This document shows positions 51,839 through 57,695 of a DNA stretch of 64,000 nt, piece by piece (within the stretch, counting starts at the first letter, position 1; each line of letters begins with the position of its first letter). The stretch lies in NCBI RefSeq assembly GCF_055900595.2, contig NZ_CM148325.1. One strand, written 5' to 3'. The notes below the pieces were generated by a model. It did not search any database, was not told where the DNA came from, and saw nothing but the letters and a program-made list of their open reading frames with translations. The position numbers and the translations under genes are program-made.

Positions 51839-52809
51839 TGTCCCTGAAATGTCGTCTGCGTACCGGCGTGCTGTTACTGAGTGTGGCATCACTGCCCCTG
51901 GCGTCTGTATCACTGAACACCGCCAGCATTATCGCCAGTACTGCGGCACCGGACTATATCAGCTGGCGTGTCAGCGGGATTTGTTACTGGCTTTACTGCA
52001 GCGCGTCTGGCTGTACGGTCAGAATTTCCGTGAAGGTGACACATTTCATCCCGGAAGTGGTTATTTCCACCTATACGGCACCGGGTGGTAATCCCTGGAA
52101 AGAGATGTCGCTGGTCAGCCGGACCGCAGGTGGCCCGGAGAATGCCATCACTGACGGCCTGTCCGGGCTGAGTGCCGGCGGGGGAAATCCGGCGGATATG
52201 AAAATACAGGGGAAGCGCCGTTCAGCAATTCGTTTCAAATACGCAGATGCGCTGGGTCATCCGGCCACACAGCTTATCGGCGGGATGGTACCCGGATTCA
52301 GCTGTGATTCACCGGTGACACCGGCCATGGCCTATTTCCTCAGTACCCTGGACAGCATCGTCTAGCGAACGGGATTACCTGAATCCCTGTATCCAGAGGC
52401 ACAGGTTCCCGGCAAACGCGAGATTGGCAGCTAGGCCGATAAAAACATGTGGGGGAGCGTTTATCACCGGAGTGGTTTTGTGATGCAGAGCGATGATGAC
52501 CGGGCCGCGGCGGTGGGGGCTCAGCGGGTGGCCGACATTATCACGCGGATGGGGGAGTCGCATGTCTACAGGGAGGTTAAGGGCGTGAAACGTGACGGCT
52601 ACTGGCCCCCGGAGGCGGTGGAGGAAAACACCGGCACCCGCAATCACAAATGGCAGCGACTGACGCCGTCAGTGTCGCGTTCCTGTGCCGTTTTCCCGGA
52701 TGGTGAACACCAGGCGGCGGAGAACGGTAATGCAGCCTTTGCACTGTGGCAGCCTTACAGCTGCTTCGAAAAGCGCGGGCAGCGATTCCTTGGCAGTACG
52801 AATTTTTAA
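51835..52809 (+). pseudogene. ICE TraU-like protein (PFL_4710/TIGR03756-like), frameshifted
   Basis: Two ORF-track pieces, 51835..52365 and 52447..52809, consecutive with the flanking ICE genes. Confidence 0.45.
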
Positions 52810-52815
52810 GGAACC

Positions 52816-53590
52816 ATGATGATGAAGATGAAAACAGGTATGGTGGCACTGAGTGTGATGCTGTACTGCAGTATTCCGGCGATGGCTGATCTTCTTTCCC
52901 TGCCGAAACTGAATGACAGCACGTTCGGTTACGGGAAATCCGTGGATGGCGCCGTATCCGACAAACTGTTCTATACGCTGGGTGGCGGCTCGGTGATCTC
53001 ACAGTTGGCCACGCGCAGCAACATGCAGAAGCTGGGTATGGACCTGGGCTGGAGCAGCGATCTGATGTGCGGCAACTTTGACCTGAAGACCACGGTGGGT
53101 AATCATCTTAACGGATTGACCGACGGCTTTAAAAATCTGATGGGGGATGTGATTTAGGGGGCGACCGGCGCCGCTGCCAGTCTGCCGGCGATGGTGATAC
53201 AGCGTGCCAACCCCGGCCTGTACGACATGATCACCAACGGTGTGCTGCAGGCGAATGTGGCTTTCGACAAGGCGTAACTGAACTGCCAGAACATGGCAAA
53301 ACGGATGATGGACTTTTCTGATCGCAGCAAATGGACGCAGGCCAGCGATGCTGGAAGAGTACAAGAAGGTGGTGAACAGCGGTGACGGTGATGCGGTGAA
53401 AGGGGACGAGGCCGGACGTCAGGCCACCGGGAAGGAAGGTAAGAAATGGATTGGCGGGCAGCAGCGCGGCGGGGCAGGTCAGCCCGCCATCCGGCCGGTG
53501 CATGATCTGACAGCGGCTGGGTTTAACATGATGAACAGTCTGCCCGTGACCAGTACGGGAGGTTACGATAAAGCCGACAGTGCAGGATGT
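52816..53590 (+). pseudogene. ICE protein (PFL_4711/TIGR03755-like), interrupted and 3'-truncated
   Basis: Signal peptide ORF 52816..53157, continuing after a stop; ends at an IS integrase-core fragment. Confidence 0.4.
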
Positions 53591-53940
53591 GATGTTAGGA
53601 GCGATAGAAAAACGCTTTGGCGATAAAGGACCGGAACGAGCAATCCAGTGGCGGACGGATAACGGTTCGGCTTATACGGCTCATGAAACACGGCAATTCG
53701 CCAGAGAGTTGAATCTGGAGCCCTGCACGACGGCAGTCAGTAGCCCTCAGAGCAATAGAATGGCAGAAAGGTTCGTGAAAACGTGAATGAAGACTACATC
53801 GCGTTCATGCCGAAACTGAATGTAATAACGGCATTGCATAACCTTGCAGAGGCGTTCGAGCATTACAATGAAAACCATCCGCATAGTGCGTTAGGTTATC
53901 TCTCACCACGGGAATATCGACGTCAGCGGATAACGTTAAC
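53580..53940 (+). pseudogene. Transposase integrase-core (rve) C-terminal fragment
   Basis: ...[45 protein letters not shown]..., continuing with stops. Confidence 0.4.
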
Positions 53941-54298
53941 TTAAGATACAATAGCAGTCTGATATTGAGGGGGCAAGAACATCCGAACCACACCAGCCTG
54001 TGACTTATACCCTGTCTCTACGACCCAGAGAGTATTATTCTTAATAATCTCATAATATATACACAATAGGAAGTATCTATTAACAAAATAGAGAACATCG
54101 TTTTTACTATCAAATAGTTGCACTGTATTAATATGATTAAACTTTAAAAAAGTTTCAGGCTGATCAGGAGGAGTTATGAAAAAAATAAATATTTTAATTC
54201 TGTGTCTGTTTTCTGGAGCGTCGTGGGCAAGTGACGTAGATAATGTTAAGTGCTGATGAATCCCCTAATGATTTTTATCAAAATCATTAAGTTAAGGT

Positions 54299-54367
54299 AG
54301 ATACACATCTTGTCATATGATCAAATGGTTTCGCCAAAAATCAATAATCAGACAACAAAATGTGCGA
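54299..54367 (-). ncRNA. IS10 antisense RNA-OUT (inferred by position, not verified)
   Basis: Same positional inference as for copy 1; this copy carries substitutions at outside-end positions 24-27 and 47. Confidence 0.3.
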
Positions 54368-55568
54368 ACTCGATATTTTACACGACTCTCTTTACCAATT
54401 CTGCCCCGAATTACACTTAAAACGACTCAACAGCTTAACGTTGGCTTGCCACGCCTTACTTGACTGTAAAACTCTCACTCTTACCGAACTTGGCCGTAAC
54501 CTGCCAACCAAAGCGAGAACAAAACATAACATCAAACGAATCGACCGATTGTTAGGTAATCGTCACCTCCACAAAGAGCGACTCGCTGTATACCGTTGGC
54601 ATGCTAGCTTTATCTGTTCGGGCAATACGATGCCCATTGTACTTGTTGACTGGTCTGATATCCGTGAGCAAAAACGGCTTATGGTATTGCGAGCTTCAGT
54701 CGCACTACACGGTCGTTCTGTTACTCTTTATGAGAAAGCGTTCCCGCTTTCAGAGCAATGTTCAAAGAAAGCTCATGACCAATTTCTAGCCGACCTTGCG
54801 AGCATTCTACCGAGTAACACCACACCGCTCATTGTCAGTGATGCTGGCTTTAAAGTGCCATGGTATAAATCCGTTGAGAAGCTGGGTTGGTACTGGTTAA
54901 GTCGAGTAAGAGGAAAAGTACAATATGCAGACCTAGGAGCGGAAAACTGGAAACCTATCAGCAACTTACATGATATGTCATCTAGTCACTCAAAGACTTT
55001 AGGCTATAAGAGGCTGACTAAAAGCAATCCAATCTCATGCCAAATTCTATTGTATAAATCTCGCTCTAAAGGCCGAAAAAATCAGCGCTCGACACGGACT
55101 CATTGTCACCACCCGTCACCTAAAATCTACTCAGCGTCGGCAAAGGAGCCATGGATTCTAGCAACTAACTTACCTGTTGAAATTCGAACACCCAAACAAC
55201 TTGTTAATATCTATTCGAAGCGAATGCAGATTGAAGAAACCTTCCGAGACTTGAAAAGTCCTGCCTACGGACTAGGCCTACGCCATAGCCGAACGAGCAG
55301 CTCAGAGCGTTTTGATATCATGCTGCTAATCGCCCTGATGCTTCAACTAACATGTTGGCTTGCGGGCGTTCATGCTCAGAAACAAGGTTGGGACAAGCAC
55401 TTCCAGGCTAACACAGTCAGAAATCGAAACGTACTCTCAACAGTTCGCTTAGGCATGGAAGTTTTGCGGCATTCTGGCTACACAATAACAAGGGAAGACT
55501 CACTCGTGGCTGCAACCCTGCTTACTCAAAATCTATTCACACATGGTTACGTTTTGGGGAAATTATGA
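54360..55568 (+). CDS. IS10 transposase
   Basis: 402-aa ORF identical in translation to 4125..5333. Confidence 0.95.
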   Translation: MCELDILHDSLYQFCPELHLKRLNSLTLACHALLDCKTLTLTELGRNLPTKARTKHNIKRIDRLLGNRHLHKERLAVYRWHASFICSGNTMPIVLVDWSDIREQKRLMVLRASVALHGRSVTLYEKAFPLSEQCSKKAHDQFLADLASILPSNTTPLIVSDAGFKVPWYKSVEKLGWYWLSRVRGKVQYADLGAENWKPISNLHDMSSSHSKTLGYKRLTKSNPISCQILLYKSRSKGRKNQRSTRTHCHHPSPKIYSASAKEPWILATNLPVEIRTPKQLVNIYSKRMQIEETFRDLKSPAYGLGLRHSRTSSSERFDIMLLIALMLQLTCWLAGVHAQKQGWDKHFQANTVRNRNVLSTVRLGMEVLRHSGYTITREDSLVAATLLTQNLFTHGYVLGKL

Positions 55569-56174
55569 GGGGATCTCTCAGTGTTAAGTGTATTCGGGTA
55601 GATAGTAAAGACATTGAAAGGTTATTCGATCGCTGGAATGAATCATTAAAAACAGGTGATGCCAAGAAGGTTGCTGATAACTATTTAAGTGATGCGATCT
55701 TACTGCCCACAGTATCAAAAAAAATTAGGATTACAGATGCAGAAAGAGTTGACTATTTTGAGCATTTTTTGAAAAAAAAACCTGTTGGAGAAATAAACTT
55801 CAGAACTATTCGCATTGGATGCAATATGGCTCTTGATACAGGGAATTACACGTTTACTTTTGAAGATAAAAAACAAGTTTCAGCACGCTATAGTTTCGCT
55901 TATGAGTGGGATGGAAAGGATTGGAAAATATCATCCCATCATTCATCTGTAGTGCCAACAACATAATATATTGAGCCTGTTTACCATTCTCTGTTAATGC
56001 CTTCTCTTAAAAGTGACCGTCCAAGCGGTCACTGATTACCCATTCTTAATTCAGTGCAGGATTAAAATATATGTGCAAAATAATTTAATTCAGACAGCTT
56101 TTTATTTCACTATGGCTATCCCAGATATCGACGACGGATGAAAAGTGGCTCTTACGCAACCTGGATGGAGATTT

Positions 56175-56540
56175 TCATGCCAGTGGACTCATGACCCTCT
56201 GTCTGAGTAGTTCAAATCCGGCTCGACCATACATCTGGCCTTTCAGCATTTTTAGTCTATTTACATGACTTTCGACAACCCCCATTATTCCAGCGACTGC
56301 TGATTGCCTCACATATAGCCGCAGCATCAGCTGCCATCCTTGCAGCCACGCGCCGAAGTTACCACTTTCTCGTTGCTCTTTTAACCACTCCCTCCATGGG
56401 GCCAGAAGTCCTCGCTCTGGAGGCCGGGTTGACATTTCAGGGAATGTTCCTGAACACACCCAGAGACTGACTGTCACACGTGATAAGCCTGTAATACGGG
56501 ATACGGCCTGATTGTATCCAATCTGGAAGAAAAGTTTCAT
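56175..56540 (-). pseudogene. DDE-transposase C-terminal fragment (ISL3-like tail)
   Basis: ...VVESHVNRLKMLKGQMYGRAGFELLRQRV resembles the conserved C-terminal tail of ISL3-type transposases; family assignment uncertain. Confidence 0.3.
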
Positions 56541-56879
56541 GATTTTATGGGCGTTATCCTTATGGTGCTGGGCGACGAGAGTAATACTTCACGCCGGTTT
56601 TGTCGGATAATCCAGAAATATAGGGGCAAATCCAAACAGGAAAGATAGGGGGAGGGACGCGTTTCCGGCACAACCAGCGTTACGTCACCCTGCATTGTTA
56701 GTTACGAAAAGCGTACCGGAAACGCGGAACATTCTTTTAACACATTACAGGCATTCGCACACATCTTTTTTCTTCTTTGTGCTCTGAACACTGCAGTGCT
56801 CAATTAATATTAGCCACGTTTTACAGTAAGAACGGTATCTGTTCTCTGATTCTTCCGGCGTCAACCCACAGTGTAATTA

Positions 56880-56916
<37 letters not shown>

Positions 56917-56922
56917 AGCTAG

Positions 56923-57695
<773 letters not shown>

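Follow-up and report, generated by a model that had tools for sequence, protein, structure and literature searches.

An IS10 insertion in the gene of a probable exported iota-carbonic-anhydrase-family protein within a decayed Escherichia coli island

The interrupted gene and its IS10

The stretch of DNA considered here, called the window in the following, comprises 64,000 nucleotides (nt) of contig NZ_CM148325.1 in RefSeq assembly GCF_055900595.2, and within it a copy of the insertion sequence (IS) IS10 interrupts a small gene whose intact form encodes 150 amino acids (aa) and whose product probably belongs to the iota-carbonic-anhydrase (iota-CA) family. As can be read directly, the IS10 is 1,329 bp long (54253-55581) and lies inside codon 26 of the 150-codon gene, which is broken after nt 77; with the first IS10 base the codon becomes one for Cys, and TGA comes next, giving a stub of 26 aa. 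When 54176-54252 is joined to 55591-55966, an open reading frame (ORF) of 453 nt and 150 aa results, in frame throughout and with its stop ending at 55966. This rejoined frame is not a product of chance, because the 453-nt ORF is 100% identical to an annotated intact gene elsewhere. It is virtually certain that the locus is an IS10 insertion and a null allele of the gene. The features are collected in Table 1.

An initial annotation of the window had described an IS10 with an intact duplication that splits, after the 25th codon, a gene having a good ribosome-binding site (RBS) and a signal peptide, the flanks of which rejoin to a secreted protein of about 150 aa. Its coordinates prove exact, the break falling at about codon 25/26; the 9-bp duplication TGTTAAGTG stands on both sides of the IS10 and is present as a single copy at the empty site in 50 genomes; and the rejoined flanks do give a protein of the secreted type and of the length described.

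Table 1. Features of the interrupted gene and of the IS10 copies in the window, followed by lesions of the same gene in other genomes
Feature	Position or genome	Strand	Remark
Shine-Dalgarno sequence AGGAGGAG	54166..54173	+	2 nt 5' of the ATG at 54176, read from the sequence
iota-CA-like gene, 5' fragment (codons 1-25 plus 2 nt)	54176..54252	+	putative signal peptide and first mature residues
Truncated ORF of 26 aa (MKKINILILCLFSGASWASDVDNVKC, then stop)	54176..54256	+	TGA stop 2 nt into IS10
Target-site duplication, left copy (9 bp, TGTTAAGTG)	54244..54252	.	perfect repeat
IS10 (PGAP name ISVsa5)	54253..55581	+	outside end at 54253, inside end at 55581
RNA-OUT, antisense regulator of the IS10 transposase	54298..54367	-	Rfam RF00240
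IS10 transposase gene, intact, 402 aa	54360..55568	+	protein identical to WP_001352368.1
Fusion ORF of 133 aa (MRGSLSVKCIRVD...)	55565..55966	+	starts at an ATG within the IS10 inside end; overlap with the transposase stop (ATGA); no signal peptide
Target-site duplication, right copy (9 bp, TGTTAAGTG)	55582..55590	.	perfect repeat
iota-CA-like gene, 3' fragment (third base of codon 26 to stop)	55591..55966	+	whole NTF2/CaMKII-AD domain including HHSS (aa 142-145)
Other IS10 copy of the window	4112..5440	-	own 9-bp duplication TGCAGAGCG, interrupts iucB of the aerobactin operon
Lesion: IS1 at nt 199	SMS-3-5 (L014, 3001-3529)		74-aa stub WP_012311683.1
Lesion: IS1414 at nt 450, 3 nt before the stop	NRZ14408 (L013, 2501-4231), LT599825		157-aa variant WP_192459708.1
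Lesion: frameshifts in A7/A9 tracts	LH50-c, PK8276		sites mapped
1-nt length difference in the match to the gene	GF60, 23CRST013		from genome survey match lengths only
Lesion: A9-tract frameshift, 93-aa allele	P0121, 90 contigs, e.g. strains TA007, TA008		

The element itself is an ordinary one. Its termini, CTGATGAATCCCCTAATGATTTT... and, as the reverse complement, CTGAGAGATCCCCTCATAATTTCC, are imperfect inverted repeats; the transposase matches the Pfam domain DDE_Tnp_1 (PF01609) at 1.5e-24 and the NCBIfam model NF033591 at 1.5e-120 (402 bits, with a cutoff of 152); and RNA-OUT scores 97.3 bits, the gathering score being 41 (E=1.8e-20, Rfam RF00240). Over its 1,329 nt the IS10 is 100% identical to a copy in E. 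coli E700025, and the transposase of that copy is named 'IS4-like element ISVsa5 family' by the Prokaryotic Genome Annotation Pipeline (PGAP). IS10, of the IS4 family, has a DDE transposase and moves by an established cut-and-paste mechanism. Compared with IS10-Right of Tn10 (IS4 family), the present copy has the same length, the same ends, the same 402-aa DDE transposase, RNA-OUT and 9-bp duplication, and there is no difference of kind.

The other IS10 copy of the window has an identical transposase, and the two copies differ only at IS positions 24, 25, 27 and 47, near the outside end. The two are separate, relatively recent arrivals, because otherwise 100%-identical islands without either copy are found in 43-48 complete genomes. 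A composite transposon formed from the two copies is rejected, as their duplications differ and relatives lack both. It is noted that the two copies are inverted, with their inside ends outward, and bracket about 49 kb of the island, and that recombination between them could invert this segment. It is also noted that with iucB interrupted the aerobactin synthesis genes of the strain are probably inactive; iutA remains, and iucB of the relatives is intact.

The intact allele and its homologues

The initial annotation had proposed to look for the intact allele in related genomes. In a survey of 5,426 complete E. coli genomes, queried with the rejoined ORF holding one TGTTAAGTG, 51 genomes gave a match, of which 50 cover at least 99% of the ORF at an identity of at least 99.6%, and in at least 35 complete genomes the ORF is 100% identical over all 453 nt. 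About 50 intact copies are thus on record in E. coli, every copy being chromosomal, with the product WP_029400372.1 bearing the annotation "SgcJ/EcaC family oxidoreductase". Carriers of the gene make up only about 1% of the complete E. coli genomes. Over the 22 kb around it, the window and the genomes with the intact allele agree at 100% except for 1,338 bp, i.e., the IS plus the duplication.

Outside E. coli, more than 300 homologues with 60-71% identity are found in Enterobacter, Providencia, Yersinia, Serratia, Buttiauxella, Pantoea, Pseudomonas and Acinetobacter, several of them carrying the label "signal peptide protein". A split ORF with neither an intact homologue nor any homologue at all, which would have spoken against the initial annotation, is not what is observed.

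IS10 at the same site in other assemblies

The insertion is also present in other public assemblies. The junctions between the gene and IS10 are defined by the k-mers GATAATGTTAAGTGCTGATGAATCCCC and GGGGATCTCTCAGTGTTAAGTGTATTCGG, and on contigs that encode the fusion protein P0125 the IS10 occupies this very position, in the same orientation, in at least four other draft assemblies (L018-L021). One of these (L018) contains the full IS10 with both junctions, is colinear with window 52565-56646, and has an outside end of the type of the window's other copy; in the remaining three (L019, L020 and L021) the IS10 inside end abuts TGTTAAGTG, and L019 and L021 have IS10 differences at positions 1268, 1271, 1272, 1281 and 1300. 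Six more draft contigs start at window 55585 or 55586, within the duplication, as is expected from an assembly break at a repeat. Altogether, IS10 or a contig break is located at the identical site in at least 10 other assemblies (L018-L027, aligned to window 55055-57466). The right-flank haplotypes vary among these contigs (56202 T/C, 56258 T/G, 56401 G/T and others), and the same flank haplotypes occur with an intact gene in SCU-115 (C/G), LH50-c (C/G/T) and NRZ14408 (window type).

Because different flank haplotypes and different IS10 variants occur at one site, a hotspot is suggested, and repeated insertion of IS10 at a preferred target is the simpler explanation of the shared site. The target TGTTAAGTG matches four of the six specified bases (G2, T4, A6 and G7) of NGCTNAGCN, the classical hotspot consensus of Tn10. 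The other explanation is that all copies bearing the IS10 descend from one ancestral insertion, with the differences having come about through recombination and gene conversion of IS10. The window and L018-L021 share position, orientation and duplication, no flank polymorphism is closer to the IS than 530 bp, gene conversion can occur among multi-copy IS10 elements, and IS variants may be mis-joined in draft assemblies, all of which is consistent with a single insertion; against it, the same flank haplotypes are found with the intact gene, three IS10 sequence types occupy the site, and the insertion is present in 0 of the 51 carriers among the complete genomes. We regard a single ancestral insertion as less likely than not. 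Quite unlikely, on the other side, is the far-reaching claim that the TGTTAAGTG site is a true hotspot hit independently in several lineages with the aerobactin/iha island and that loss of the iota-CA is recurrent, possibly selected in extra-intestinal or avian pathogenic E. coli.

Note also that in E. coli E700025 (L028, NZ_CM128597.1, 1611-2939) the identical IS10 lies beside yaiP, in a PIG-L deacetylase pseudogene, and is flanked by the same duplication TGTTAAGTG. This shared 9-mer may be coincidental, given the thousands of IS10 sites sampled.

The encoded protein and its export

The rejoined protein consists of a signal peptide followed by a single CaMKII-AD/NTF2-like domain. Among Pfam domains the best match is CaMKII_AD (PF08332) at 5e-13, with SnoaL_3 and DUF4440 also matched, and the NCBIfam model TIGR02246 (SgcJ/EcaC family) is matched at 42.8 bits, above its curated cutoff of 33.95. 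The NTF2-like fold proposed in the initial annotation is in agreement with both the Pfam domains and a structural comparison. It should be pointed out that the name "CaMKII" reflects fold, not function: the eukaryotic CaMKII hub domain (PF08332) has the same fold and is the best Pfam match, whereas the present protein is a probably exported one of 150 aa without a kinase domain, has about 12% identity to the hub and shows nothing that points to ring assembly.

The N-terminus is of the Sec type, with an n-region MKK, an 11-residue hydrophobic core INILILCLFSG and a c-region with the cleavage motif SWA|SD, so that the signal peptide comprises aa 1-19; computed hydropathy places the core at residues 3-11; in the structure prediction the predicted local distance difference test score (pLDDT) is low at residues 1-20. 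In an alignment of 41 enterobacterial and pseudomonad homologues, all 41 have a variable N-terminus with a basic n-region, a hydrophobic core and an AXA-type c-region. From these features we infer that the protein would be exported to the periplasm. In the same alignment C26 and C103 are invariant, and it is the codon of C26 that the IS10 splits. A Dickeya solani CaMKII-AD/SgcJ-EcaC protein with two Cys, predicted to be extracytoplasmic, was reduced to 0.32-fold in a dsbA mutant (PMC8775594), which would fit an exported and disulfide-bonded protein, the likeness between the two proteins being one of annotation and Cys number.

Assignment to the iota-carbonic-anhydrase family

We now consider what kind of protein is interrupted. 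The COG4875-type iota-CAs are described as carrying the SgcJ/EcaC label, a CaMKII-AD/NTF2 fold, a presequence 19 or more residues long and, towards the C-terminus, the motif (H)HHSS (PMC8425729, PMC7191908), and prokaryotic members of both the COG4875 and COG4337 types have signal peptides (PMC8132391). The present protein shows the single CaMKII-AD/NTF2 domain, the presequence of at least 19 aa, the (H)HHSS motif and homology to named members of the bacterial iota-CAs. One of these is WP_183271195.1 of Buttiauxella (P0063); its identity to the E. coli protein is 65% (E=4.7e-58), and Table 1 of PMC8425729 gives it as a bacterial iota-CA ('BspCA'). The Xanthomonas campestris structure 3H51 is matched at E=1e-30 by sequence and at 6e-41 by profile, with the HHSS of the E. 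coli protein aligned to the HHSS of 3H51, and the solved iota-CA 7C5X/7C5Y is matched by profile at 1.6e-11, the HHSS being in register in each of its three domains. In the iota-CA literature 3H51 is treated as "XcaCA", and BteCAiota of Burkholderia territorii, which is of the same annotation class, 42-51% identical to 3H51 and modelled on it, is a CO2 hydratase with a measured kcat of 3e5 per second (PMC8425729, PMC7191908). PMC7321114 names an iota-CA of E. coli with the SgcJ/EcaC annotation, and where an E. coli iota-CA comes up in the literature it is as unpublished work only.

Hirakawa et al. found Thr106, Tyr124, His197 and Ser199 of all2909 to be essential in the COG4337 type (PMC8132391). 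In the motif S141-H142-H143-S144-S145 of the E. coli protein, H142, S144 and S145 are invariant among the 41 homologues and H143 is conserved in at least 90%, and by motif alignment H143 and S145 match His197 and Ser199 of all2909; T66 (in LLPTVS) and Y81 (in DYFE) are likewise invariant and correctly ordered, and may correspond to the catalytic Thr and Tyr.

Between the E. coli protein and its relatives there are likenesses and differences. BteCAiota, compared by its published description, is likewise an SgcJ/EcaC protein with a single domain, about 150-160 aa, a secretory presequence, (H)HHSS and homology to 3H51, whereas in the E. coli protein the motif is HHSS, not HHHSS, and there are, in addition, C26 and C103 that are invariant in its clade. 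3H51, deposited as a 'putative CaMKII association domain', has a 4-residue hairpin insertion and no Cys at the position of C103. The COG4337 iota-CAs (Anabaena all2909, 7C5V; Bigelowiella Bn86287, 7C5X/7C5Y; PMC8132391) belong to a different COG and have an extra insertion; for the COG4337 type independence from metals is reported, as against dependence on Zn or Mn for the COG4875 type.

Based on this evidence, the protein is probably a member of the COG4875-type iota-CA family. The "oxidoreductase" in the SgcJ/EcaC label is without experimental basis for this clade. A real carbonic-anhydrase activity of the protein is about as likely as not, or somewhat likelier. The "unknown function" of the initial annotation can therefore be made more precise, since a family can be named, with a putative enzyme activity.

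Several points weigh against the reading given here and have to be considered together. The activity of 3H51 was never confirmed (PMC8132391); activity has been shown only for BteCAiota, LCIP63 and COG4337 proteins, with no enterobacterial homologue among them; the metal dependence and active site of the COG4875-type iota-CAs are unsettled in the literature; and T66 and Y81 are put forward as the catalytic Thr and Tyr from conservation and spacing. The signal peptide was called from sequence features and hydropathy. A consensus promoter and terminator scan gave no plus-strand promoter above threshold upstream of the gene, where an 8/12 promoter match is seen by eye only and a -10-like block is loosely conserved in other genera. 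Finally, the gene/IS10 junction occurs in none of the 5,426 complete E. coli genomes, because of which the frequency of the interrupted allele is not estimable.

The alternative to the iota-CA assignment is that the protein is some other periplasmic NTF2-like protein, one that binds small molecules, for example, or resembles isomerases or dehydratases in its activity, or forms an oligomeric scaffold, in which case the insertion would remove a function not yet assigned. We consider this unlikely, since among the structural neighbours sequence identity singles out the iota-CAs and 3H51, since the HHSS motif and the Thr and Tyr of the cavity are invariant, and since BteCAiota, of the same annotation class, is active.

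Loss of the gene in a decayed island

The gene has 35% GC, compared with 49% for the window, and stands alone between IS fragments. Around it the island contains iucABCD-iutA, sitABCD, sodC, an amiC-like amidase gene, an ibrAB-like pair, group II intron maturase genes, iha and PhoX, together with pseudogenised genes of an integrative and conjugative element (TIGR03756/03757), many remnants of IS3, IS110, IS21, IS66 and IS630, and transposase pseudogenes by the dozen; the 64-kb window lacks a tRNA gene. The window is a heavily decayed mosaic pathogenicity island.

The gene is also broken by other means in other genomes (Table 1). Mapped or putative poly-A frameshifts number four among the complete genomes. 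The A7 tract affected by frameshifts is ORF nt 4-10 (54179-54185) and the A9 tract is ORF nt 259-267 (55772-55780); these tracts may be slippage-prone and contingency-like, or part of the homopolymer frameshifts may be sequencing errors. The initial annotation had allowed that loss of the protein is either tolerated or selected. The first is borne out by the independent IS1, IS1414 and frameshift lesions, and the second finds no direct support. Because the gene is an isolated AT-rich cargo remnant in an island and is carried by about 1% of complete genomes, its loss has most likely been tolerated, not selected, the neutrality being deduced from this setting; a preference of IS10 for this target has probably contributed.

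By contrast, it could be proposed that the loss is adaptive, inactivation of a periplasmic enzyme having been selected in the host or in a CO2-rich niche. If this proposal is followed, the occurrence of several lesion types (IS10, IS1, IS1414 and A7/A9 frameshifts) in one gene of 453 bp would find an explanation. The island is, however, full of pseudogenes and IS remnants, and therefore relaxed selection suffices; the IS10 lies at one site in one orientation and the frameshifts lie in homopolymers, which is the signature of mutation bias; and about 35 complete genomes keep a perfect copy, one of them being a genome with at least 40 matches to IS10 ends. Relaxed selection in a decaying island explains all of the lesions, positive selection is not required, and we regard an adaptive loss as improbable.

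Some observations on the surroundings of the homologues can be added. In Enterobacter plasmids or mobile elements (L002-L004, 6750-7355, minus strand) and in Pantoea (L008-L010, 6669-7265, minus strand) the homologue is followed by a conserved gene in convergent orientation, which encodes about 200 aa, matches HTH_46 weakly and may be a dedicated regulator. The Buttiauxella homologue has two small secreted-looking ORFs nearby, and the closest relatives (L015 and L016) have unrelated neighbours. By tblastn none of the neighbour genes of the homologues is present in the window, and the neighbourhood gives no clue to function. In the long upstream spacers of the homologues no relevant riboswitch or other RNA was found, the sole match being to part of a group II intron in L002.

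Consequence of the insertion

The proposed course of events is then as follows. IS10 would have entered codon 26 of a stand-alone 150-codon gene, making its usual 9-bp duplication. The intact product would be a Sec-exported single-domain NTF2/CaMKII-AD protein, with the likely role of hydrating CO2 to bicarbonate in the periplasm. After the insertion the promoter, the RBS and the signal peptide would stay with the 26-aa stub, and the catalytic domain would come 1.3 kb further downstream, preceded by a transposase gene whose expression is very weak. Because the promoter, RBS and signal peptide are parted from the catalytic domain, the allele is null for any periplasmic activity. Taken as a whole, the statement that IS10 has been inserted, that the allele is null, that the protein is of the iota-CA family and that its loss is tolerated is highly probable.

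The 133-aa fusion ORF, it is noted, continues in frame through the remainder of the gene, and a GGGGA motif lies upstream of it. We consider this ORF irrelevant to function, since it could be transcribed only by read-through from the transposase gene; transcription and translation of the IS10 transposase are extremely weak. The RNA-OUT promoter pOUT and RNA-OUT itself face leftward, to an IS3 remnant, where there is no gene to activate. A polar effect on downstream genes is ruled out, the next feature rightward being a convergent transposase pseudogene. As an observation on its own, the fusion protein (MRGSLS...) has been deposited from other assemblies as 'SgcJ/EcaC family oxidoreductase' (P0125), i.e., an artefact of IS fusion is propagating in the databases.

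That the insertion creates a new function, whether a cytoplasmic enzyme of 133 aa (for which the in-frame fusion, the ATGA overlap and the GGGGA would speak), outward transcription from pOUT, or a composite transposon of 51 kb (4112-55581; for which the inverted arrangement and identical transposases would speak), is very improbable, since transposase expression is so weak, pOUT is on the minus strand and directed toward the geneless remnant, the two copies came separately as their different duplications imply, and relatives have the same island with neither IS.

Conclusions

The finding is an ordinary and largely known one: the IS is known, the gene, of a known family, has its annotation in RefSeq, and public assemblies already contain the interrupted allele. 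As insertions of IS10 into accessory genes are routine, it has little weight as a discovery.

Three aspects are of modest value. One nucleotide position, occupied by different IS10 variants in different haplotypes, is a tidy natural case of the target-site preference of IS10. The label "SgcJ/EcaC family oxidoreductase" hides what is probably, as judged from sequence, a periplasmic iota-CA that is carried by about 1% of E. coli inside a virulence island. Moreover, the natural nulls of the gene (by IS10, IS1, IS1414 and frameshifts) stand beside perfect alleles on near-identical islands, and constitute ready isogenic material for a study of this enzyme class in enterobacteria.

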